DNA of 64,000 nt from Arenicellales bacterium. Lineage in GTDB: Bacteria; Pseudomonadota; Gammaproteobacteria; Arenicellales; JAJDZL01. The stretch is from positions 2,165,072 to 2,229,071 of the forward strand of contig OZ220493.1 of NCBI GenBank assembly GCA_965116205.1, given 5' to 3'. Made by a program: the position numbers and the translations under genes. Below are positions 42,590-57,652 of this stretch, piece after piece; position 1 is the first letter of the stretch, and every line of letters begins with the position of its first letter. The notes beneath the pieces were generated by a model. That model saw only the letters and a list, made by a program, of their open reading frames with translations, searched no databases and was not told the origin of the DNA.

Positions 42590-43484
42590 CCATTTTTACC
42601 AGTTCAGTAACAATCTGTCGGACGATAGCAGGCCCCTGAAAAACTAGGGTTGTATAAATCTGTGATGCAATCGCGCCGGCGAGGAGTTTGTTCTGGGCAT
42701 CTTCGGCTGAACTGATTCCACCGACCTCAATGATTGGAATCTTACCCTGGATAGTATCTGTTAGCCTTCGAATGATAGCGGTTGAACGACCTCTCAATAA
42801 TGATCACAGATCTACCGGTCTTGAGTGTAGTGCTTATGATGAAACGGTGCACTTCGTGCAGTAGTCGTATTAGTGGCAACCAAGACATTGATTTGATGTT
42901 TGAGAGAAATATCAGCAATACAGTCGACCTCATCTGTTTCGAGATTCGGTGAGACTTTTACGGCGATGGGTAGAAACTTACCATCATAGTGGCTGACCAG
43001 ATCATTTCAATGTTCCATGATGGAATGGATAAGTTGGTCGTATTCGAATTCCTGCTATAGTAATCTGAGTTCCGGTGTATTCGGTGAAGACAAATTAACG
43101 ACAGCTAGTTTGCATAAGCATATATGGCATCCGGACATTTGACATAGTCTTCAATGGCGCGATCATTGGGGAACCGTTCCAATTTCAATCAGTCCGAATC
43201 CCAAGGTAACCAGCGCGGGGTAGGCACCGCCATTTTTCAAATCCGGCAGCCGGCCCGATTGGATTTCTCTATGGTCTGCCAAAAATGTTAATCGGTAAGT
43301 CAGTTACCTGATTGCGAAAGAGTGTCATTAGACCGACATTCAGCATTTGACTGTCTGAGAACTTTTCAAGGAGTTTGATGGTTGTTCGATGAACCTGCTC
43401 GAGGTCCATGTTTACAAGCATGGGTTGAAGCAATTTGTAACTGGAAAATTTCAAAAAGACTCGTTTTGTCTCAATGGTCGCCAT
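42590..43484 (-). pseudogene. pyrD: decayed dihydroorotate dehydrogenase (quinone) gene
   Basis: Minus-strand translation gives PyrD-colinear pieces. These include LLQPMLVNMDLEQVH, NTPELRLL*QEFEYDQLIHSIMEH*NDLVSHYDGKFLPIAVKVSPNLETDEVDCIADISLKHQINVLVATNTT, and LRGRSTAIIRRLTDTIQGKIPIIEVGGISSAEDAQNKLLAGAIASQIYTTLVFQGP. In-frame stops lie at 43055-43057 (TAG), 43007-43009 (TGA) and 42812-42814 (TAG). At least two frameshifts occur around 42790-42830. Confidence 0.85.
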
Positions 43485-44212
43485 TGCCCGATGGGTAGAG
43501 GTCCCAACTTGATATCGCCAATGCGAACTCTTTTTAGTCCGATGACAGTAAGTCCAACCTGGTCACACATTCGCCTGATTTGACGTTTTCGGCCTTCCGT
43601 GAGAATCATACGAAAATAGTTGCGATCCAGCAGTTCAACTTTGGCCGGTGCTAATTTGACTTTGTCAAGACTTAGTCCAAACTTTAGGCGATTGATTTGT
43701 TCTGTATGAATATCCTGATTGACTCGCACCAGGTATTCTTTTTCGATCATCGAGTCAGGTGCGATCAGTTGCTTCGCAATTCGCCCATCCTGCGTGAGGA
43801 CTAGGAGACCGGTCGAGTCGATGTCGAGTCGGCCAGCTGGCGCTAAACCTTTAATAGGCCATTGAATTTTAAATCCTTTTTCTTCTTTACTGTTGTGATG
43901 CCGGTTACTTTGCGTTACCAATGACATCGCCGGTCGGTAGTGATTTTCAGGTTGTCCGGAAACATAGCCGATGGGCTTGTTCAGGAGAATTGTGATGAGT
44001 TTTTTCTGATAGGAATGAGCTCTCGGGTCAAGTACGATATGGCATATCTCGCTGACCGTAGTGCCCTGCTCATGGACTATTTCGCCATTCACTTTCAGCC
44101 AGCCCTTTGCAATAAAGAATTCAGCTTCTCGGCGAGAACAGATTCCTTTTTGTGATAAGTACTTAGACAGTCTGATGGATTCTACAGTCATTTGACTAAG
44201 AGTGAACGACAC
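43451..44212 (-). CDS. RsuA/RluF-family rRNA pseudouridine synthase
   Basis: 253 aa. It has an N-terminal S4 domain (IRLSKYLSQKGICSRREAEFFI), the catalytic GRLDIDSTGLLVLT, and EKEYLV and GRKRQIRRMC motifs. Confidence 0.88.
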   Translation of the reverse strand: MSFTLSQMTVESIRLSKYLSQKGICSRREAEFFIAKGWLKVNGEIVHEQGTTVSEICHIVLDPRAHSYQKKLITILLNKPIGYVSGQPENHYRPAMSLVTQSNRHHNSKEEKGFKIQWPIKGLAPAGRLDIDSTGLLVLTQDGRIAKQLIAPDSMIEKEYLVRVNQDIHTEQINRLKFGLSLDKVKLAPAKVELLDRNYFRMILTEGRKRQIRRMCDQVGLTVIGLKRVRIGDIKLGPLPIGQWRPLRQNESF

Positions 44213-44368: not shown

Positions 44369-46375
44369 CTAAATTTGCTCTATGATCTCTTCAATCTGAT
44401 CGAATTTCTTACTCTTGGCGAGGTATTCCGAATAGGCATTTTGTGCGCCTTTTATGAGAGTATCGTAATGAACAATTCGACTACCGGGAGAGATAACCGC
44501 CATCGATCGTGTAACAAGATCAGGGTCGTTACTCCCCTCTTCCATCAATTTTCCCAAAACGAAGACAACTTGGATTGTTGGAGATTTGTCTCCTTGATTG
44601 AGCAGTATTTTTTTCAGTATTTTAGAATAGTTCAATCCTTGGTCGACTAATTCCAGGAGTTTTACTTTCCGTCCGGCTCTTTTCAGTTCAACGATAATGT
44701 GAGTTCCTGCATAGGTCCGGTAGGCAATATCAACACGGCTGAGTTTTTCCTTTTCCGTTAAGTCATCAATAATCATCTTCTCCTTGGCGAGCCGCGATTC
44801 CATTTCTTCACTACCGGTAGCTCGTTCCCATGCTGGATCAAGGAGCCAGAGATGGTCAAACAAATACTTTTGTAAAACTCTTTCTTTGCCATCTTCGTTG
44901 ACGATACCTTGAAAATCTTTGATCACATTCAGCCGCGATTTAACAATCTCTCGATAGAGCGTTGCTTCCATTGCGTCTCGGTCTGCAAGAACTTCCAAAA
45001 GTTTGTTGATATCTTGTATGCCGGCGACAAACTCTTCGGTTGATTCTCGAATCCGCATCCGTTCGAATGCCAGGATACCGTGTCGGTATAGGGTCTTTCG
45101 ATCGTCGTTATTTTCAACTGGAAGGGCACTGAGGTTGGCAATCATTTTTTCAGCGCTTTTCTTAGAACCTGCCGGCAGGGATTCAAACCACTTGATCAGT
45201 ATTGGGGAATTTTCCTTCGCAATTTTCACTTCATGTTGACTTCTCCACTCGGACCAGCGTTTTTCGACTCGTTTTAGACTGGATTTTAGAAAAGACAATA
45301 ACTGAGTATAACGCTCGTCATCTTCCTGCATGCGCTGGCGGTCGCTGGTCGCGATATCCGGTTCATTATCTTGGTCAAGAAAATCAGCCTCAATCTGTCC
45401 AGTCAGGTACTTCGTATAGAGGTGACCATTATTCACCTTATCAAGAATATTTTCATGGATCAGGCGACCGCGGGCAAACACCACTATACTGTTTAGGTTA
45501 CCAGTATCCCTGCTATCCAACTGCTTGGGAAAACGCGCGGTCCCAAGCCAACCAGAGATCTGCCAATCTTTCGGCCAATCATCCATTCGGTTCGGTAACT
45601 CTTCAGATTCACAAAGGTTGGATGAGTACTCCGGGATCAGATCTAACTTGCCGAATGACCAAATGAATTGTGCAATACAAAGGTCTTCTCGCTCATTTTT
45701 GGTGATTGGTTGGCCATCAATTATGACCTCGAAGTTATGACGCTTGCCGATGATTGAGAAACGTCGTGCCAACCGCTTCCGCAATGCTTTGATTCTAGCA
45801 CCTAGCCTTTGTCGTTTGACTGCGTTCAGTAGTATCTTTGTGCCTTTGTGAACGGTTATTTCATCTTGCGACAAAGCGTCTGGCTGATAAGATTGTTGAT
45901 TTCTTTTTAGCGACTCGCGGATACCATCAACAAGAATGCGACAACCATGGTATTGGCCATCCTTAGTAGACTGTACTTCGATTATTTCGGCAATTGAAAA
46001 CAATGAGAGTTTACCCAGTCCTTTGCGTCCCATCACCGGTCGGCCTTTTTTTGTGAATTTGCCGGTTTCGTTATCTTCATCACGTCGGCGGTAACCGACG
46101 CGAAGATACTTGTCATTCATATCTTGGAACGTCATGCCGACGCCATCATCAACAATTTCTATCCGTTTCTCTTCCTGATCAACATTGATTGCAACATTTT
46201 CAGCATCCGCATCCCATGCATTGGCAACCACCTCTGTCAGCACGGCGGCAATATTACTATAGAGATTGATACCGAGGTGTTCAAAAACATTGAGGTCGAC
46301 TGCCATTTGATATTCATCGTCGCATCTGTCGGTTACAGGTTGAAAATTCGATAGTCTTTGTGAATTCTTATTCAT
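44369..46375 (-). CDS. GHKL (MORC/paraMORC-like, HATPase_c_3-type) ATPase fused to a C-terminal PD-(D/E)xK-like nuclease module
   Basis: 668 aa. Bergerat motifs: N-box TEVVANAWDADAENV (E48, N52, D55), G1 IVDDGVGM (76-81), G2 GRKGLGKLSLF (116-126). The C-terminus has RVDIAYRTYAGTHIIVELKRAG (D549...E563-x-K565). A GGAG SD lies upstream of the ATG. The gene lies 110 bp downstream of a Dcm-type methyltransferase on the same strand. Confidence 0.7.
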   Translation of the reverse strand: MNKNSQRLSNFQPVTDRCDDEYQMAVDLNVFEHLGINLYSNIAAVLTEVVANAWDADAENVAINVDQEEKRIEIVDDGVGMTFQDMNDKYLRVGYRRRDEDNETGKFTKKGRPVMGRKGLGKLSLFSIAEIIEVQSTKDGQYHGCRILVDGIRESLKRNQQSYQPDALSQDEITVHKGTKILLNAVKRQRLGARIKALRKRLARRFSIIGKRHNFEVIIDGQPITKNEREDLCIAQFIWSFGKLDLIPEYSSNLCESEELPNRMDDWPKDWQISGWLGTARFPKQLDSRDTGNLNSIVVFARGRLIHENILDKVNNGHLYTKYLTGQIEADFLDQDNEPDIATSDRQRMQEDDERYTQLLSFLKSSLKRVEKRWSEWRSQHEVKIAKENSPILIKWFESLPAGSKKSAEKMIANLSALPVENNDDRKTLYRHGILAFERMRIRESTEEFVAGIQDINKLLEVLADRDAMEATLYREIVKSRLNVIKDFQGIVNEDGKERVLQKYLFDHLWLLDPAWERATGSEEMESRLAKEKMIIDDLTEKEKLSRVDIAYRTYAGTHIIVELKRAGRKVKLLELVDQGLNYSKILKKILLNQGDKSPTIQVVFVLGKLMEEGSNDPDLVTRSMAVISPGSRIVHYDTLIKGAQNAYSEYLAKSKKFDQIEEIIEQI

Positions 46376-46485
46376 TGCCTTCTCCGTTTGAGATCAAAAT
46401 TTGCGCCATGGGTATTTTCGTATAGATTGCGAGTACGGTTTACTCAGCATTGAAGTTTGTTTTGTTACCCAGTGAAGAAGACAGA

Positions 46486-47595
46486 TTATGCGACTCTTTT
46501 CTGTGCATCAAGCCATTCCTCCACATGAAACAGGATGCTTTTGCCAATCGCTGCGCCGAGTTTGACAGGAACGGCATTGCCGATCAGACGGGCGACAGTG
46601 TTCCGGTTAATGGAAATACCTTTTGGTGCAAATTTGTACGCTCTCGGAAAACTCTGTAAAATGGCGCCCTCACGAAGAGAAATGGCACGGTCCTGCTCCG
46701 GATGTCCAAACCGTCCATTCCCGAAGCCATAATACTGTGTTGTCATCGTTGGTGCGGGGTCTGTCCAAGTCATCCGACCATAAACGCTACCGTAAGTCTT
46801 TCCTGATTTCTTCCGATGGCACAGGGCGCGGAGGTTTTCGTCCCAATCTCGCCAGGTCCCACCAGGCTTTGATGCGCGAATACGTTTCAGGTTGAGCAGT
46901 GACAATCCACATGCTGAATGTAATGGGTCGTCTACGTAAGTTTCTCCGGCCCTCAAAGGTGGCATTTTATTGATAGCATCCCAGACCGTTTTATGGCAAC
47001 CCATTGGTGTTGTGGGGCTGATAAGTTGAATGGAGGCAATCGTCGAAGCCAGCAGAACGAGCCTTTTTCGATGCTGTGGAACACCATAGTCAGCGCAGTT
47101 GACGACACTGTGGAAAATATGAAATTCACCATCTTTCAGAGTCTCTATGAAATCCATAAACACTTCTTGACGTTCTAGAAGTGGAACATTTTCCATCGTA
47201 ACAAGATGTGGTCTACACTCTTCAATAAGACGCGAAAAGTGGTTGAGAAGATTCCAGCGCCGGTCCTTAGGACTGGACCAAGATTGGTTGTAGGTTGAAA
47301 ATGGCTGACAGGGTGCACAGCCGGCTAGCAGTTTGAAGGAACCTTTGTCGAAGTGCCCAGCAACATCGGTTGCTGAGACCTTCTCAACCGACATCAACTT
47401 AAATGCAGCATTATTGTTTTTGGTGTAAGGATATTCGCAGGCTGGATCAATATCAACGCCAAGTCTGACATCGATATTGACACTTTCCAGTCCATGTGTA
47501 AGCCCGCCAGCTCCGCAAAAAAGATCAACACCGTGGATGGATGCCGCGATTTGCTTTAGCTTCTTTTGTTGCGTCGATTGATTTTGCTGGGGCAC
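46486..47595 (-). CDS. dcm: DNA (cytosine-5)-methyltransferase
   Basis: All canonical m5C motifs are present: I DLFCGAGG, IV CAPCQPFS, VI MENV, VIII QHRKRLV, X GNAVP. The stop is firm at 46486. The start is uncertain. The ORF-track start 47916 overlaps purB by 128 nt and has no ATG before motif I. I chose GTG 47595, 22 codons before motif I. Confidence 0.85.
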   Translation of the reverse strand: MPQQNQSTQQKKLKQIAASIHGVDLFCGAGGLTHGLESVNIDVRLGVDIDPACEYPYTKNNNAAFKLMSVEKVSATDVAGHFDKGSFKLLAGCAPCQPFSTYNQSWSSPKDRRWNLLNHFSRLIEECRPHLVTMENVPLLERQEVFMDFIETLKDGEFHIFHSVVNCADYGVPQHRKRLVLLASTIASIQLISPTTPMGCHKTVWDAINKMPPLRAGETYVDDPLHSACGLSLLNLKRIRASKPGGTWRDWDENLRALCHRKKSGKTYGSVYGRMTWTDPAPTMTTQYYGFGNGRFGHPEQDRAISLREGAILQSFPRAYKFAPKGISINRNTVARLIGNAVPVKLGAAIGKSILFHVEEWLDAQKRVA

Positions 47596-47788: not shown

Positions 47789-49177
47789 TTATGAAATTCC
47801 TTCACTTCGAGCGATGGCCGCCGCGTAACCGATGTAGTCACGGGGTACCAATTTGAGTAATTTGTTGCGATCTGATTCCGGCAGTTCAAGTCCACTGATG
47901 AATTCACGAATTTCAATTTCTGAGACGGTTACACCTCGGGTTAACTCTTTCATTCGCTCATAGGGCAGTTCACCGCCATGTTTGCGAAGGATGGTTTGAA
48001 TCGCTTCACTCAGCACCTCCCATGCATTATCTAGGTCTGCATTGAGTCGTTGTGGGTTGATTTCCAGCTTGGACAGTCCGTCGCGGATGGCTTGATACGC
48101 GATCAGACTGTGTCCCAACGGGACACCGAGATTTCTGAGTACGGTTGAATCACTCAAGTCTCTTTGCCATCGACTGATCGGTAGCTTCTCGGCTAGATGA
48201 CTGAACAGTGCATTCGCCACTCCTAAGTTGCCTTCCGCATTTTCAAAATCAATGGGATTAACCTTATGTGGCATCGCCGATGAGCCGACTTCACGCTGAA
48301 CAATTTTCTGCTTAAAGTAGCCAATCGAAATGTAACCCCAGACGTCACGGCAGAGATCCTGTAATATGGCATTGATTCGATGGAGAGCGTGACAGTATTC
48401 GGCGATGTAGTCATGCGATTCGGTTTGCGTGGTTACCGGACTGTATTCGAGTCCGAGTGATTCCACAAATTTTTTAGCCGCCTGTGGCCAATTCACCTCA
48501 GGGTTAGCTGTGAACAGTGAGTTGAAATTACCGGTAGCACCACTCAGTTTACCTTTGATGACAACATTGTCAAAGACGTTCAGTTGGTTCGAAAGACGCG
48601 TTGAAAATACTCTGAATTCCTTACCAACTGTTGTTGGCGAGGCCGGTTGTCCATGGGTACGGGCTAACATAGGTGTTTCTGCGAACTCAATGGCGAGTTG
48701 TGACAGTTGGTGAGTCAGTTGCGATAGCTCAGGGACCAGTATGTTGTCTCTGGCAGATTTCAACATTAGCCCGAAACAGTTGTCGTTGATATCGTAGGAG
48801 GTGCAACCAAAGTGTATCAGTTCCCGAGCCTGTTGCAGTTCTGCCAGGCTTTTTGCTCGATCTTTCAGAAAGTACTCGAGAGCCTTGACATCGTGATTAA
48901 TCTCCCGTTCGATCTCTTTTACGGCTAGGGCATCAGCAATTGAAAATTGCGTCACCAGGCTACGCAGACTCTTTATTGATTCGGTAGACAAAGGTACAAG
49001 GTCGGTGAACTCAGGCAGGTTAGCAAGTTGAATCAACCATTCTACTTCGACGTGTAATCGTAGTTTGATCAAACCAAATTCACTGAATAGTTCACTCAGT
49101 GGCTCAACTCGCTTGATGTAACGACCATCAAGCGGTGACAATGCTCTGATTGCTGCGGAGTCGGTCATTTCATCCAC
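47789..49177 (-). CDS. purB: adenylosuccinate lyase
   Basis: 462 aa with the fumarate-lyase signature GSSAMPHKVNP. The N-terminus SPLDGRYIKRV is typical of PurB. Confidence 0.95.
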   Translation of the reverse strand: MDEMTDSAAIRALSPLDGRYIKRVEPLSELFSEFGLIKLRLHVEVEWLIQLANLPEFTDLVPLSTESIKSLRSLVTQFSIADALAVKEIEREINHDVKALEYFLKDRAKSLAELQQARELIHFGCTSYDINDNCFGLMLKSARDNILVPELSQLTHQLSQLAIEFAETPMLARTHGQPASPTTVGKEFRVFSTRLSNQLNVFDNVVIKGKLSGATGNFNSLFTANPEVNWPQAAKKFVESLGLEYSPVTTQTESHDYIAEYCHALHRINAILQDLCRDVWGYISIGYFKQKIVQREVGSSAMPHKVNPIDFENAEGNLGVANALFSHLAEKLPISRWQRDLSDSTVLRNLGVPLGHSLIAYQAIRDGLSKLEINPQRLNADLDNAWEVLSEAIQTILRKHGGELPYERMKELTRGVTVSEIEIREFISGLELPESDRNKLLKLVPRDYIGYAAAIARSEGIS

Positions 49178-51090: not shown

Positions 51091-51963
51091 CTATACCAGC
51101 AGTCGGCAGTAATTGCAGGCACGACCTAGACGCGTAGGAGTGCCGGATTTGTCGCAGTATCCGCATCCATGTTTACTAAAGAAAGAGAGAGCAGGATCAA
51201 GGTCGGTACAGGTTTTTCGAGTACCGTTAGCATTATCAGTTCTCATCAAATCAACGGCGCTGCGCCAGACTGACTGAATATAGTTGGCGTCGGGTGCTGT
51301 ATCGTCCCGGGTCTGTTTAAGCATTCCCAAGTTTTTTGTGGTTTGAATGACATCTGAATCAACCGTGATTTGTAGAGCATCAAGGTGCGTGATTTTCGCG
51401 CCACCAAGGCGAGCAAGCAGATGAATCCATTTCTGACTGGTCTTAGTTCCGCTAAGCAGTGGGAAACGGTTACGATTGTCTTTTCCCCGGGTAGCAAGGT
51501 CTTTGAGCAGCTGTTTGGCATCTACCGTTTTGCCATAGATAACTCGACTAACCGCACAGTGGCTTTCGAGTGCGATAGTCTGTGCAATGTCCAACCAAGC
51601 CTGCGGACCCTGCTCATTGCCCTGGGAAACTTTACTTTCTTTCAGTTTGTCGTCCAACTGCTCGACGGAAAATTTGAACAGTTCTAAAGGGTCAAACACC
51701 TCTGGATGGCGCTCATAGAGTTCAAGGCTATTCCACCAGCACCGACTCGAATCTCGCCCCCGGTCGATGGCGGCGATAAAAGTGAGGTAAAGTAGAATCG
51801 TTCTATCCGGCACATCGGATTCACGTAGAAATTCGACGCATTCAACCGGTGGCATTTTGGCCCATGACGCTGGAGAGGGTACATTACCTCTTGCGGTCAG
51901 ATCAAACCGTCCCTGGTAGTAATCTTCGACAATATATTCAACAATGCGCCCAAATTCAGGCAT
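51091..51963 (-). CDS. HhH-GPD-superfamily-like (endonuclease III / DNA glycosylase-like) protein with a C-terminal CxxC-x12-CxxC motif
   Basis: 290 aa. It has a helix-hairpin-helix-like segment FPLLSGTKTSQKWIHLLARLGG (168-188). This is followed by ITVDSDVIQTTKNLGML, comparable to VDTHVFRVSNRLGL of EndoIII. The C-terminus is HGCGYCDKSGTPTRLGRACNYC (C267, C270, C283, C286), not the EndoIII C-x6-C-x2-C-x5-C loop. Assignment is by eye only. Confidence 0.45.
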   Translation of the reverse strand: MPEFGRIVEYIVEDYYQGRFDLTARGNVPSPASWAKMPPVECVEFLRESDVPDRTILLYLTFIAAIDRGRDSSRCWWNSLELYERHPEVFDPLELFKFSVEQLDDKLKESKVSQGNEQGPQAWLDIAQTIALESHCAVSRVIYGKTVDAKQLLKDLATRGKDNRNRFPLLSGTKTSQKWIHLLARLGGAKITHLDALQITVDSDVIQTTKNLGMLKQTRDDTAPDANYIQSVWRSAVDLMRTDNANGTRKTCTDLDPALSFFSKHGCGYCDKSGTPTRLGRACNYCRLLV

Positions 51964-52416
51964 ATTGGCTACTCAATGGAACCCATGGTGGATGAATTGC
52001 AGATTTTTTGTCAGGGGCCAGCAGTCAGCAAGGTGCTTTTTTCAATAGTTTCATTTTTTATTAGATTTTTGCAACGTGGTCAATAACAAAAAACAGTTCA
52101 TTTAATTTGAAGAAAGCTGGCAACTTAACGGTAACAGATAAACAATAGCAAAACAAATCAATAGATTGTGAAAGTGAGTTCTATAACCCAGTATTATGGT
52201 TATGTGTTCTAGGCAGTTGTCCGTGTGAAGTAATCGGCATATTCTCGTTAGTTGTGTTCATACCCAATCCGGAGAATCTAAAGGAAAAGGGGGTAGCACC
52301 TGATTTGAGTATTTTACTTCTCTTTAATCCCTGATTCTACAATGCAGATTAGAAAAACAGGTGTGCTGAACCGAATGAGTAAATTCTGTCTCGTAGTTCT
52401 GATAACATATACTACT

Positions 52417-52429
52417 TGACAATATGTCA
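52417..52429. promoter_or_regulatory. 13-bp palindrome, candidate operator in the long leader upstream of the HTH-methyltransferase
   Basis: TGACA-ATA-TGTCA, embedded in CTTGACAATATGTCAG (which also contains a TTGACA hexamer). It lies about 270 nt upstream of the methyltransferase ATG. Confidence 0.2.
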
Positions 52430-52695
52430 GATTCGAAACTGTTGTTTGGGTTATTTTCTTCTCCCGAATAGAGTGGCGATGAGTCGGCGATAACCGCCAT
52501 TCTGAAGGAGGTAATACTTAATGAAGATGCTCATTTCCTAATAATGTGCGAAACAGTTAGAAAATAATAATAACCGACCAAAAAACAGTCTTGGACGACG
52601 AGTAGTTACTATTTTAGATTTTGTTGGGTATTCACTCAAAATCAACTGTATGAAATCGGTAACCGAAAAATTATATTTGCCTTGATATAAAGCAT

Positions 52696-53721
52696 ATGCA
52701 GTATTCTGAAAGAACTTACTTGTCTGTTGTGGAGGTTGCAAAGTACACCGGATTATCCGTTCGAGAAATTCACCAGCGTGTCAAATCAGGGGATATCTCG
52801 GCTACAAAATCAACGGCGGGCCAATATCGTTTTAACCTGTGTAACATCTCTCACCTAAAACCGAATTCACACCTCGCTCAGACTCAACAGCCGACAAATG
52901 AGTCTGTTGAAGAAATCGAAAAGTCGGGAACGAAACAGACGATTGTCTGTGGTGATTCAAGAGGCATGATGAAACTAGAAGACAATAGCGTTCATTTAGC
53001 AATCACCTCACCACCATACTTTAATGCAAAAATGTATTCTTCAGATTCGAATGATCTTGGAAATGTACATGATCTTGATGTTTGGTTGGAACAAATCGGA
53101 GAAGTGTGGGCGGAAGTCTACCGGACACTATGTCCTGGGCGAAAATTTTTTCTGAATATTATGAACTTGCCAGTAAAACAGAATAAGTCTTTTCGTTCGC
53201 TCAATTTGTGTGGTAAGAGTATCGATCTGTGTGAAGATAAAGGATTTATTTTTAAACGAGATATTGTTTGGCACAAGACTAATGGAGTTCGTGCCCACTT
53301 TGGAACGTATCCTTATCCTGGTGGCATTCTCATCAACCACATGCATGAATTTATATTGGAATTTGAGAAACCACAACCTAAGCAGGTCTCAAAGTATCGT
53401 CATTTATCGGATGAACAGAAGCAACAGTCGAAGCTAGACAAAGAGTTTTGGCTTTCTCTTAAAAATTCAGATGTTTGGCTAATGAAACCTGAAAAAAGCG
53501 GTGGAAATCGCAATCATGCCGCACCATTTTCTATTGAACTGCCTGCACGATTAATTAAAGCGTATAGTTTCGTAGGTGAGACGATACTGGATCCTTTTTT
53601 AGGTTCAGGTACAACATTAGTTGCCGCTTCCGAATTGCTCAGGAATGGTGTTGGTTATGACATAAACCCAGACTTTTGCGATATGGCAAAAAAAAGAATT
53701 GGTAACGAAGATTCTAGTTGA
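52696..53721 (+). CDS. DNA amino-methyltransferase, beta-class order, SPPY motif IV (N4-cytosine-type signature), with an N-terminal HTH domain
   Basis: 341 aa. The N-terminal excisionase/MerR-like HTH is LSVVEVAKYTGLSVREIHQRVKSGDI. Motif IV is AITSPPYFN (S105-Y108). Motif I is DPFLGSGTT (from D299), near the C-terminus. The region is AT-rich. Confidence 0.85.
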   Translation: MQYSERTYLSVVEVAKYTGLSVREIHQRVKSGDISATKSTAGQYRFNLCNISHLKPNSHLAQTQQPTNESVEEIEKSGTKQTIVCGDSRGMMKLEDNSVHLAITSPPYFNAKMYSSDSNDLGNVHDLDVWLEQIGEVWAEVYRTLCPGRKFFLNIMNLPVKQNKSFRSLNLCGKSIDLCEDKGFIFKRDIVWHKTNGVRAHFGTYPYPGGILINHMHEFILEFEKPQPKQVSKYRHLSDEQKQQSKLDKEFWLSLKNSDVWLMKPEKSGGNRNHAAPFSIELPARLIKAYSFVGETILDPFLGSGTTLVAASELLRNGVGYDINPDFCDMAKKRIGNEDSS

Positions 53722-53724
53722 TTC

Positions 53725-54900
53725 ATGGCTACAAAGCATCAACAAGACAAAGGAGTTTCAAAACGAACTTTTGCTCAATCTAGCGATATAAAGTCTCGTG
53801 ATACTTATCAGTATCGACTAGACATGAAGAAAAAAGGGGTAAGGGAATTAGAGTTCCTGCCTTATCTCCAACAAATACTGCAAAACAAGTTTAAAGACCA
53901 AAATCTCACAGTGAGTAAATCTGGTGGTGACGCACTACATTGGTTTCTCCGGCACGGAGAACTTATTAGCAGAGAACCTGATTTTATAGCCAAAATTAAT
54001 GGTGAAGAAACGAAAATCGAATTTCAAATGGCGAATGAAACGCCCAAAGAGTTCTTTGATTTCAAGGAAACCAAGCTCGGCAAAAAACCTAAAAATAAAC
54101 CGCGCCAACCATATACGGATCGAATATTTTTTTATGTTGTTCGAGACAAGAACAGTTACAGTTTTTTGACTCCAAAGTGGATTTGGGAAAATGGAAGTGA
54201 CCGGTTCATCTCAGCGTGGAGAAGTCAAGGACGGAGTATTCCAATTAGTGTTTTTTTGAATCAATGCCGGGATGGAAGTGAATCTCTTCGAAATATATTG
54301 CAACTGATTGATGACAAAATACTACTTTTGGAATTTCAAAACGAGATTATTGATATTGAATCAGATGCAATATCTGCCCAACTACAAAAGTTGGTCGATG
54401 AGAGTGTTGAGTTTAGAATCGTGCCGAGGTCACTTGAAGGGATCTATTATGCTTGTTTTCTAATGAATAGATTAAATCGATATCCAGATGGCTCAAACAC
54501 ATGGCTTGTGTATCTATCTTCTTTCCTAAATGAATCAATATCCAATTTGAACTTTCAACGCTTTATGTTTTCATTTGATTTTCTTTATTTTAAATGCCAC
54601 CAATTTGCGGAGAATGAGAGAAAAATAGTAGGTGATGTGTTAAGCAGGTCAAAGAGCGCTGTAGAGACGAGAATTGACAACTACGGTGTATTCAGGGTTG
54701 ATCGCAATGAATCTCAAATTGAAGGAACTAGACGATTATTGTTTTCAATGAATCTACTAGAAGATGTTATGCAAGATGCAAGATTTTCATTCGGTTTCAA
54801 TTTCCCACAAGTTCGAAAAATCTATGAAATGATTCCAGACGTTTCTAAATTGGCTAATGAAGTTCGAGAATTTTATAAATCAGAAAAAGACCACATCTAG
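53725..54900 (+). CDS. putative type II restriction endonuclease (PD-ExK motif), partner of the upstream methyltransferase
   Basis: 391 aa starting 3 nt after the methyltransferase stop. It has a candidate catalytic motif in SREPDFIAKINGEETKIEF (P85-D86 ... E95-x-K97). I recognised no other family. One 60-nt line (53761-53820) hand-counts to 21 G+C. Confidence 0.55.
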   Translation: MATKHQQDKGVSKRTFAQSSDIKSRDTYQYRLDMKKKGVRELEFLPYLQQILQNKFKDQNLTVSKSGGDALHWFLRHGELISREPDFIAKINGEETKIEFQMANETPKEFFDFKETKLGKKPKNKPRQPYTDRIFFYVVRDKNSYSFLTPKWIWENGSDRFISAWRSQGRSIPISVFLNQCRDGSESLRNILQLIDDKILLLEFQNEIIDIESDAISAQLQKLVDESVEFRIVPRSLEGIYYACFLMNRLNRYPDGSNTWLVYLSSFLNESISNLNFQRFMFSFDFLYFKCHQFAENERKIVGDVLSRSKSAVETRIDNYGVFRVDRNESQIEGTRRLLFSMNLLEDVMQDARFSFGFNFPQVRKIYEMIPDVSKLANEVREFYKSEKDHI

Positions 54901-56444: not shown

Positions 56445-57020
56445 TCAGCCGCTTGTATGCTCACCATGAGCGGCAGTCGATTGACTGACCGGGTAAAAGA
56501 TGTAGGACAGTGTCAATTTATCAATGGTTTCCGGCAGATCTGAGTTGACATAGAATCGAACCGGCATTTCTCGCGCTTCACCGGCTGCCAGTGTCTGATT
56601 ACTGAAACAGAAACACTCAAGCTTGACCAGGTTTTTCATGGCCTCCATCGGTAACACGCTCGGAATAGCCTGTCCGACCATTGATTCGTTTGATGTATTG
56701 GTAACCAGATAGTTGACCAGATGAATTTCACCGGGGTGTACCTTAGTTGTGCGAACGACTGGTTTCATAGTCCAGGGCATATCTTCGTTTTCAGTTGCAG
56801 CAAACTCAACAGTGATACCTCGGTCTGCTTGAATGGCAATGTCTGAAGAGTCATGCTGTTCGACAGCAATGGTTGATGGGCAACCGATGCCGAGATGCTC
56901 ACAGGAATAATCAGTCACCGGTGCCAGTGCGTAACCCAAACCAAACATTAAAATCATCAGTCCCGAGAACAATATGATCCAACGCGCTTGCGAGCGACGA
57001 TTGGTGGTGGCGTTCAACAT
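56445..57020 (-). CDS. ctaG: cytochrome c oxidase assembly protein CtaG/Cox11, divergent tandem copy
   Basis: 191 aa with an N-terminal TM and the copper-site motif KLECFCF. The membrane-proximal motif is altered to APVTDYSCEHLGIGC, versus VPLYDLFCEITGVGG in the neighbouring copy. Confidence 0.88.
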   Translation of the reverse strand: MLNATTNRRSQARWIILFSGLMILMFGLGYALAPVTDYSCEHLGIGCPSTIAVEQHDSSDIAIQADRGITVEFAATENEDMPWTMKPVVRTTKVHPGEIHLVNYLVTNTSNESMVGQAIPSVLPMEAMKNLVKLECFCFSNQTLAAGEAREMPVRFYVNSDLPETIDKLTLSYIFYPVSQSTAAHGEHTSG

Positions 57021-57076: not shown

Positions 57077-57652
57077 TCAGCTGTTTGCCTGTTGAGCCAT
57101 GGTGTCAATTGGCTGACCCAGCGGAAAAAAGCTGTAGGAGAGTGTCAAAGTATTGATCTCATCCGACAGCTTCGAATTAATGTAGAAGCGAACCGGCATT
57201 TCCCGCATTTCACCGGCTGCAAGCGTTTGGGCATCGAAGCAGAAACACTCAAGCTTGACTAGGTTTTTTGCGGCCTGCATGGGTGAAATACTTGGAATGG
57301 CCTGTCCAACCATGGGTTGTTTGGATGTATTCTTGACTAGATAATTCACTTCGTGAATGACGCCAGGATTTACTTTGGTTTTACGAACCAAGGGTGTGAT
57401 GGTCCAAGGCATATTCTGGTTGGCTGTCGCCGTGAATTCCACCGTAACTTCTCGTCTCGCTTCGATGATAGCTTGCTGCTGTTGTTCGACGGCAATGGTG
57501 GGTTTGCCGCCGACCCCAGTGATTTCACAGAACAGGTCATAAAGTGGCACCAGTGCATAACCGAATCCAAACATGAGGACGACGGCACCAGAGAGCAAAA
57601 CGACCCATCGACCATTGGCGCGGCGCGTTGTTCCAACAACAGGCATAACCAT
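57077..57652 (-). CDS. ctaG: cytochrome c oxidase assembly protein CtaG/Cox11, canonical copy
   Basis: 191 aa with VPLYDLFCEITGVGG and KLECFCF, the hallmark Cox11 motifs. Confidence 0.92.
   Translation of the reverse strand: MVMPVVGTTRRANGRWVVLLSGAVVLMFGFGYALVPLYDLFCEITGVGGKPTIAVEQQQQAIIEARREVTVEFTATANQNMPWTITPLVRKTKVNPGVIHEVNYLVKNTSKQPMVGQAIPSISPMQAAKNLVKLECFCFDAQTLAAGEMREMPVRFYINSKLSDEINTLTLSYSFFPLGQPIDTMAQQANS

Follow-up and report, generated by a model that had tools for sequence, protein, structure and literature searches.

The fusion of a GHKL adenosine triphosphatase (ATPase) domain to a nuclease is an established architecture, known from the restriction enzyme R.HgiDII and the paraMORC3 proteins since 2008, from variants of the Shedu defence system since 2023, and from genetic work since 2025. 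Here, a two-gene locus of this kind is described from an Arenicellales bacterium (GenBank assembly GCA_965116205.1). It lies in a stretch of 64,000 nucleotides (contig OZ220493.1, positions 2,165,072 to 2,229,071 of the forward strand), which as a whole is referred to as the window. The locus encodes a 668-amino-acid (aa) protein, which is a full-length member of the named BbrUII/HgiDII restriction-enzyme family, and a C5-cytosine DNA methyltransferase. The two genes probably constitute a Type II-like 5-methylcytosine (m5C) restriction-modification system of this family.

R.HgiDII was described as a GHKL domain joined to a C-terminal domain 'unassigned to any known fold' (Orlowski and Bujnicki 2008, PMC2441816). 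R/M.HgiDII and R/M.BbrUII are listed as Type II systems in REBASE and share with the window locus the GHKL domain, the distinct C-terminal domain and the paired C5-cytosine methyltransferase. M.HgiDII is a 5mC methyltransferase with the site GTCGAC (PMC5867850). In paraMORC3, a GHKL module is combined with a C-terminal RecB-like nuclease containing E-D-ExK motifs (Iyer, Abhiman and Aravind 2008, PMC2292703), and restriction-modification contexts with methylases and superfamily 2 (SF2) helicases were reported for these proteins (PMC2292703). Compared by description, the window protein, with E-D-ExK and an additional QxxxY motif, resembles paraMORC3 in its E-D-ExK signature and in having relatives among SNF2 and DrmA helicases. 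It differs in that the nuclease-bearing subset of paraMORC3 is mostly stand-alone according to Iyer et al., whereas a methyltransferase accompanies the family of the window protein.

VcSduA of Vibrio cholerae, a Shedu type I-D protein, is described with the domain order GHKL, Hsp90/MORC-like middle domain and DUF4263/SduA_C nuclease (Adams et al. 2025, PMC12137116), an order that the window protein probably shares. The substitutions E27A in its ATPase and K557A in its nuclease each abolish phage defence (PMC12137116). These are the catalytic glutamate of the N-box and the lysine of the ExK motif, and both residues have counterparts in the window protein. An earlier note on this DNA, made from its sequence alone, had regarded GHKL ATPases of this type as essentially uncharacterised experimentally, a statement that the phage defence by VcSduA and the loss of function of its ATPase and nuclease mutants overturn. 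VcSduA acts alone, while the window family almost always occurs with an orthologous m5C methyltransferase, and the single-gene, methyltransferase-free state typical of Shedu type I-D is therefore not a trait of this family. Canonical Shedu SduA from B. cereus (8ti8/8ti9) has the nuclease domain that matches the C-terminus of the window protein best in structure; its N-terminus is a sensor domain, where the window protein has a GHKL ATPase in addition to the linked methyltransferase. A last point of comparison is class 1 of the defence island system that is associated with restriction-modification (DISARM). The characterised system of Serratia sp. SCBI (Aparicio-Maldonado et al. 2021, Bravo et al. 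2022) consists of six genes, none of which encodes a GHKL protein, and the window, unlike class 1 DISARM, is devoid of DrmA, DrmB, DrmC, DrmD and DrmMI.

Assignment of the 668-aa protein to its family is based on the NCBIfam equivalog model NF050001, 'BbrUII/HgiDII family restriction enzyme', which it matches with 821.1 bits (cutoff 550). The alignment runs end to end, from residue 22 to 668 of the protein and from position 1 to 659 of the 659 model positions. The best PADLOC model is PDLC03419 REase_II (E 1.2e-114). At E ≤ 1, the only PADLOC matches are two REase_II models and a marginal TmtA, and none of the Shedu models of PADLOC 2.0.0 is matched at this threshold. The family is large: over 4,000 proteins match at E ≤ 1e-5, and many are about 67% identical across phyla. 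No other sequence found exceeds about 70% identity to the window protein; the closest homologue, P0002 (68% identity), sits within DISARM. Relatives were located in 238 species genomes from Proteobacteria, Gemmatimonadota, Acidobacteriota, Chlorobiota, Actinomycetota, Planctomycetota and others, a spread across phyla typical of a gene that moves horizontally. Homologues with the same family name, assigned by the Prokaryotic Genome Annotation Pipeline, are present in 30 of 5,426 complete E. coli genomes, and 40 plasmids carry homologues. The proposal that the fusion may be an undescribed architecture does not hold for a curated family (NF050001; REase_II in PADLOC) published in 2008. Likewise, a system 'without a classical endonuclease' is not the right description, as PD-(D/E)xK is a classical restriction-enzyme fold.

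The locus is composed of the following features:

43451..44212: pseudouridine synthase, flanking gene (PF00849 and S4)
44369..46375, minus strand: restriction subunit gene of the BbrUII/HgiDII family, 668 aa (NCBIfam NF050001; PADLOC)
46376..46485, minus strand: spacer of 110 bp from methyltransferase to restriction gene, containing a GGAG ribosome-binding site
46431-46446: short palindrome GAGTACGGTTTACTCA, a 16-mer within the spacer (repeat D7 of the repeat scan)
46486..47595, minus strand: cognate C5-cytosine DNA methyltransferase, 369 aa, M.HgiDII/DrmMII-like (PF00145, TIGR00675, PADLOC)
47789..49177: purB, flanking gene

The restriction gene starts with ATG, preceded by GGAG 10 nt on its 5' side. 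The methyltransferase is located upstream, and its stop codon at 46486 is 110 bp from the start of the restriction gene. As listed, the methyltransferase open reading frame (ORF; 476 aa) overlaps purB. From the purB stop to the catalytic domain, the GTG at 47595 is the sole start in frame; it yields a product of 369 aa, which is also the length of the methyltransferase orthologues. Within the spacer, the ends of the palindrome GAGTACGGTTTACTCA are self-complementary (GAGTA/TACTC), as read from the sequence. A scan of the locus for promoters and terminators gave nothing above the shuffled background. The repeats in the flanks are short, chance-level matches only and mark no insertion boundaries. 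Genes for Vsr, AspBHI/Mrr-like proteins and DISARM components were found nowhere in the 64-kb window. The observations in the earlier note are confirmed: each position quoted for the GHKL motifs and for D549, E563 and K565 is exact, the distance of 110 bp to an upstream m5C methyltransferase on the same strand is correct, the flanking genes are a pseudouridine synthase and purB, and the absence of Vsr extends to the entire window.

From N- to C-terminus, the parts of the restriction protein are the GHKL ATPase, the middle domain, the helical linker and the PD-(D/E)xK nuclease:

45872..46252, minus strand: GHKL (Bergerat-fold) ATPase domain, residues 42-168 (Pfam HATPase_c_3, E 3.4e-19)
45446..45844, minus strand: middle domain, mixed alpha/beta, residues ~178-310 (full-length AlphaFold2 (AF2) model, of low confidence here)
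44897..45421, minus strand: all-helical linker, residues ~319-493 (AF2 secondary structure)
44372..44896, minus strand: predicted Shedu-type PD-(D/E)xK nuclease domain, residues ~494-668 (conservation, SduA_C, Foldseek)

The identity of the C-terminal domain as a Shedu-type PD-(D/E)xK nuclease is supported by conserved residues, family models and predicted structure. The segment RVDIAYRTYAGTHIIVELKRAG at residues 547-568 holds D549, E563 and K565, and the proposed active site consists of E498, E526, D549, E563-x-K565 and Q579-x3-Y583. E498, E526, D549, E563, K565, Q579 and Y583 are invariant (100%) in a set of 75 full-length, diverse relatives with a median identity of 39% to the window protein. 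The signature is thus read as E-D-ExK plus QxxxY, the latter motif being a mark of RecB-type nucleases. When residues 486-668 were searched against 1.84 billion representatives, 434 clusters were obtained, and in nearly all of them the domain is placed at the end of proteins of ~650 aa. Pfam matches among 92 relatives were to SduA_C (27), PDDEXK_4 (13) and NucS_C (5), with no competing fold class. With 29.7 bits across the entire SduA_C model, the best relative exceeds the cutoff of 27, and the window C-terminus itself scores below it (13.3 bits, E 0.094).

A domain model of the C-terminus, built with AF2 on 92 diverse sequences, has a predicted local distance difference test (pLDDT) of 83 and a predicted template modelling score (pTM) of 0.82. 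Its elements follow the order strand, strand, helix, strand, with D549 opening one strand and ExK closing the one after it. The top Foldseek match in the PDB is the B. cereus Shedu nuclease 8ti9 (E 5.3e-4, probability 1.0), a moderate match with a template modelling score (TM) of ~0.45 and 13% identity, followed by the PD-(D/E)xK enzymes EcoT38I, Nt.BspD6I, Bse634I and Cap4. Sequence searches of the PDB with the whole protein, the C-terminal profile and one relative returned GHKL matches or noise only. The assignment of the C-terminus to PD-(D/E)xK nucleases of the DUF4263/Shedu kind, initially made from D549, E563 and K565, is supported by the motif conservation among homologues, by SduA_C matches in 27 of 92 relatives and by the nuclease fold retrieved with Foldseek. 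An explicit Shedu-type assignment of the HgiDII C-terminal domain is apparently unstated in the searchable literature.

The N-terminal domain was correctly recognised as a GHKL ATPase, as the HATPase_c_3 match and its motifs demonstrate. The N-box TEVVANAWDADAENV occupies residues 47-61 and includes E48, N52 and D55. G1 is DDGVGM at 76-81 (D76-x-G78-x-G80), and G2 is GRKGLGK at 116-122. E48, N52, D55, D76, G78, G80, G116, G119 and G121 are conserved at 99-100% in the 75 relatives. Because conservation is this strict at a median identity of 39%, the GHKL and nuclease features are not due to chance. ATPase and nuclease residues are moreover kept in both genomic contexts of the family, the methyltransferase pair and DISARM.

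The middle domain is probably a GHKL transducer-like domain. The full-length AF2 model (pLDDT 61.8) was used for domain order alone; in Foldseek, 377-484 of its columns align to the N and M domains of Hsp90/TRAP1, and the top 50 PDB matches are Hsp90, TRAP1 and GRP94. An Hsp90/MORC-like middle domain was noted in GHKL-Shedu proteins by Gu et al. 2023. No Pfam match to the MORC S5 model was found, with HATPase_c_3 and HATPase_c as the only matches at E ≤ 1; in paraMORC3, an S5 domain is described after the GHKL domain. The Hsp90/TRAP1 matches and the lack of an S5 match in Pfam justify the description as a GHKL protein with a transducer-like middle domain; the label 'MORC-like' used in the earlier note is not specifically supported and was rejected. 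The helical linker contains conserved positions at ATSDRQR (342-348), W374 and W396, and possibly serves in DNA binding or recognition.

The methyltransferase matches PF00145 at residues 129-461 of the long ORF (E 3.8e-50) and the NCBIfam model TIGR00675 dcm with 118.8 bits. In PADLOC, it scores almost as well on DrmMII (3e-80), the methyltransferase of class 1 DISARM as in Serratia sp. SCBI, as on MTase_II (4.4e-81). The site of Serratia DrmMII is MTCGAK/YMTCGAKR, not GTCGAC, and its relation to the window methyltransferase is suggested by the PADLOC model score only.

Linkage between the two genes was surveyed in 80 genome loci with a homologue of the restriction gene. A methyltransferase orthologue (46-71% identity) adjoins the restriction gene in 34 of them, directly upstream and on the same strand in 33 cases; in the remaining one (L076), it is downstream on the opposite strand. 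Only five of the 80 loci have neither an adjacent methyltransferase nor DISARM, and these are disrupted by insertion sequences (IS) or integrases, or are truncated. In every intact locus examined more widely, the methyltransferase is present. Haloarchaeal plasmids are among the top matches (Halobaculum, Haloplanus), where the match overlaps an annotated cytosine methyltransferase. Methyltransferase and nuclease are a conserved unit across phyla and gene arrangements. The enrichment next to methyltransferases that the earlier note had proposed to look for is therefore found, and its division into a restriction arm and a protection arm agrees with the orthologous m5C methyltransferase seen in nearly every locus examined.

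Several neighbourhoods in this sample have features of their own. In E. coli CFSAN061771 (NZ_CP042896.1, L087:11085-14134), the methyltransferase and the BbrUII/HgiDII enzyme are convergent cargo genes of a P2-like prophage, flanked by its replication endonuclease and portal genes. A third context comprises a 406-aa RE_AspBHI_N+Mrr_cat protein (L085:8788-10008, L086:8784-10004). Here, the order is methyltransferase, (x), AspBHI_N+Mrr_cat protein and GHKL-nuclease, with or without Vsr, and the end of the AspBHI_N+Mrr_cat gene overlaps the start of the GHKL gene by a few bases. A protein resembling modification-dependent nucleases is an odd neighbour for an m5C methyltransferase. Shorter GHKL paralogues were found near the full-length gene at L057:4211-6085 (624 aa) and L089:18220-20944 (556 aa), the latter with its own m5C methyltransferase and many IS elements around it.

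In the proposed restriction-modification system, the methyltransferase would mark the DNA of the host at a short palindrome built around TCGA, as in the sites of HgiDII and of Serratia DrmMII, and the nuclease domain would cut DNA that lacks the mark. Binding and hydrolysis of adenosine 5'-triphosphate (ATP) by the GHKL domain may gate the nuclease, probably through dimerisation of the GHKL domains into a clamp on DNA. ATP gating is suggested by the strict conservation of the ATPase motifs and by the analogy to VcSduA, in which E27A and K557A each abolish defence. Additionally, E48 of the window protein falls at approximately position 27 of the NCBIfam model, a weak hint toward E27 of VcSduA.

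Some observations weigh against this interpretation. GTCGAC, which in unmethylated form would be the target of a SalI isoschizomer of this family, occurs 11 times in the window against 15.2 expected, so that it is not depleted and the count is uninformative. HgiDII is said to have been assayed originally as an ordinary Type IIP enzyme, and no published test of an ATP requirement for HgiDII or BbrUII was found in the literature. M.BbrUII alone had little effect on transformation in one study. Finally, VcSduA defends without any methyltransferase (PMC12137116), which implies that this nuclease type is not intrinsically methylation-gated.

The behaviour of VcSduA leads to an alternative, in which the window protein is a stand-alone Shedu type I-D nuclease triggered by some signal of infection, for example DNA ends or phage proteins, and the methyltransferase is functionally independent. 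VcSduA has the same GHKL and DUF4263-type architecture and defends on its own in E. coli (PMC12137116), GHKL-fused Shedu homologues were listed by Gu et al. 2023, and a Shedu nuclease is the best structural match of the C-terminal domain. Independence of the two genes is difficult to reconcile with their linkage, both in the 34 adjacent pairs and in all intact loci viewed more widely, which spans many phyla, prophages and archaeal plasmids, and with the disruption or truncation of the five methyltransferase-less loci. Furthermore, PADLOC yields no Shedu model at E ≤ 1, and NCBIfam classifies the family as a restriction enzyme. This explanation is considered unlikely.

A different origin is suggested by the second genomic context of the family. 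In 41 of the 80 loci, the GHKL-nuclease gene is positioned between DrmMI and DrmA of class 1 DISARM (L001, L003-L008, L010-L012, L014-L018, L020, L021, L023, L024, L026-L029, L031-L035, L039-L042, L044-L046, L050, L051, L062, L063, L066 and L067; wide views in L081-L084, L088 and L090). All five DISARM loci inspected at ±10 kb show the order m5C methyltransferase, DrmD, DrmMI, GHKL-nuclease, DrmA and DrmB. DrmC then follows DrmB in the four loci with long enough flanks, with or without Vsr. The methyltransferase at the operon head and the nuclease gene thus bracket DrmD-DrmMI. These head methyltransferases are 62-68% identical to that of the window in three of the five loci, compared over the full length in two and over the 64 available residues in the third. 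In one locus with a two-gene module (L002:5410-6001), the 592-bp gap between methyltransferase and GHKL gene contains a C-terminal remnant of DrmMI (residues ~1144-1320, E 4.5e-24), which indicates that this module descends, through a deletion, from an ancestor nested in DISARM.

The junction of DrmMI and DrmA has the appearance of a hotspot for cargo. In seven loci (L004:3898-6039, L011, L012, L015, L017, L042 and L066), a 713-aa KAP-family P-loop nucleoside triphosphatase (PADLOC PifA, E 7e-117) is located between DrmMI and the GHKL gene. The inserts in L010/L081 are different and encode two unknown proteins, of 593 aa and 547 aa, and a second SNF2 helicase.

On this basis, the window locus could be a leftover of class 1 DISARM, in which the GHKL-nuclease is an effector that needs DrmA/DrmB and persists as an inactive or partly active remnant. 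The 41 nested homologues, the DISARM-embedded closest homologue P0002 and the DrmMI remnant beside the two-gene module of L002 are in line with such a history. In the window itself, however, tblastn gave no match to DrmD, DrmMI, DrmA, DrmB or DrmC at E ≤ 0.01, with no remnant in the gaps, and both genes are undamaged and retain every catalytic residue. In a rough neighbour-joining tree, plain methyltransferase and nuclease pairs occupy the deep branches, including the deepest of the family, and DISARM-embedded copies fall into derived clades, with several context switches. HgiDII and BbrUII are, in addition, catalogued as Type II restriction-modification systems, BbrUII is one of three systems reported to interfere with transformation of B. 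breve, and the pair is self-contained cargo in the E. coli P2-like prophage. A DISARM remnant is therefore judged very unlikely.

A MutL-like repair factor for T:G mismatches from m5C deamination, replacing Vsr, would be in keeping with the weak similarity of the GHKL domain to MutL models in the NCBIfam search, the lack of Vsr in the window and the possible repair role raised by Iyer et al. for some stand-alone paraMORC3 (PMC2292703), but it is highly improbable for a family that is curated as a restriction enzyme and found in defence islands, prophage cargo sites and DISARM operons. Replacement of Vsr in particular was rejected, as Vsr lies beside the GHKL gene in 22 of the 80 loci and in further loci at ±10 kb, so that the GHKL gene does not take its place.

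The restriction-modification system preferred here may have a wider role. Tentatively, and with considerable doubt, the methyltransferase and the GHKL-Shedu nuclease are proposed to be a portable, methylation-gated module that was repeatedly taken in by class 1 DISARM. If this were true, 'DrmMII' would be the cognate methylase of the GHKL-nuclease, the GHKL-nuclease could be the DNA-degrading arm that DISARM studies call missing, and the window would show the module working on its own. No description of the pair nested in class 1 DISARM was found in the searchable literature, a scope that does not include Ofir et al. 2018.

Further features were noticed elsewhere in the window. A second probable restriction-modification module is encoded at 52696-54900 on the plus strand, in a low-GC stretch at ~52000-54000. 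It contains a helix-turn-helix-fused N6/N4 DNA methyltransferase of 341 aa (PF01555, E 1.3e-41). The 391-aa ORF that follows after 4 bp matches no model of Pfam, NCBIfam or PADLOC and is a candidate restriction enzyme of an orphan family. The low-GC island (GC 0.37-0.39, compared to ~0.47 nearby) splits a cytochrome oxidase cluster, with SURF1/cyoE on one side and COX3/CtaG/COX1 on the other. Between the cox-assembly genes and the island lies a 290-aa ORF (51091-51963, minus strand) with no match in Pfam, NCBIfam or PADLOC. The cytochrome oxidase cluster also includes two tandem 191-aa CtaG/Cox11 paralogues (56445-57020 and 57077-57652, minus strand).

For the window, the main outcome is that the locus is now correctly annotated, as a mobile HgiDII-type pair between housekeeping genes and not as a new defence architecture. 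For the family, the implications are broader. In 2008, the C-terminal domain of R.HgiDII was pointed out as a fold that might be new among restriction enzymes; it is now assignable to the Shedu-type nucleases. This assignment ties a classical 'Type II' family to Shedu and to the GHKL-gated VcSduA, and raises the question of whether such 'Type II' enzymes are in fact ATP-dependent. The DISARM nuclease is called 'a mystery' by authors who characterised the Serratia system, and the nesting of the pair in class 1 DISARM provides a concrete candidate for the nuclease that DISARM is said to lack.

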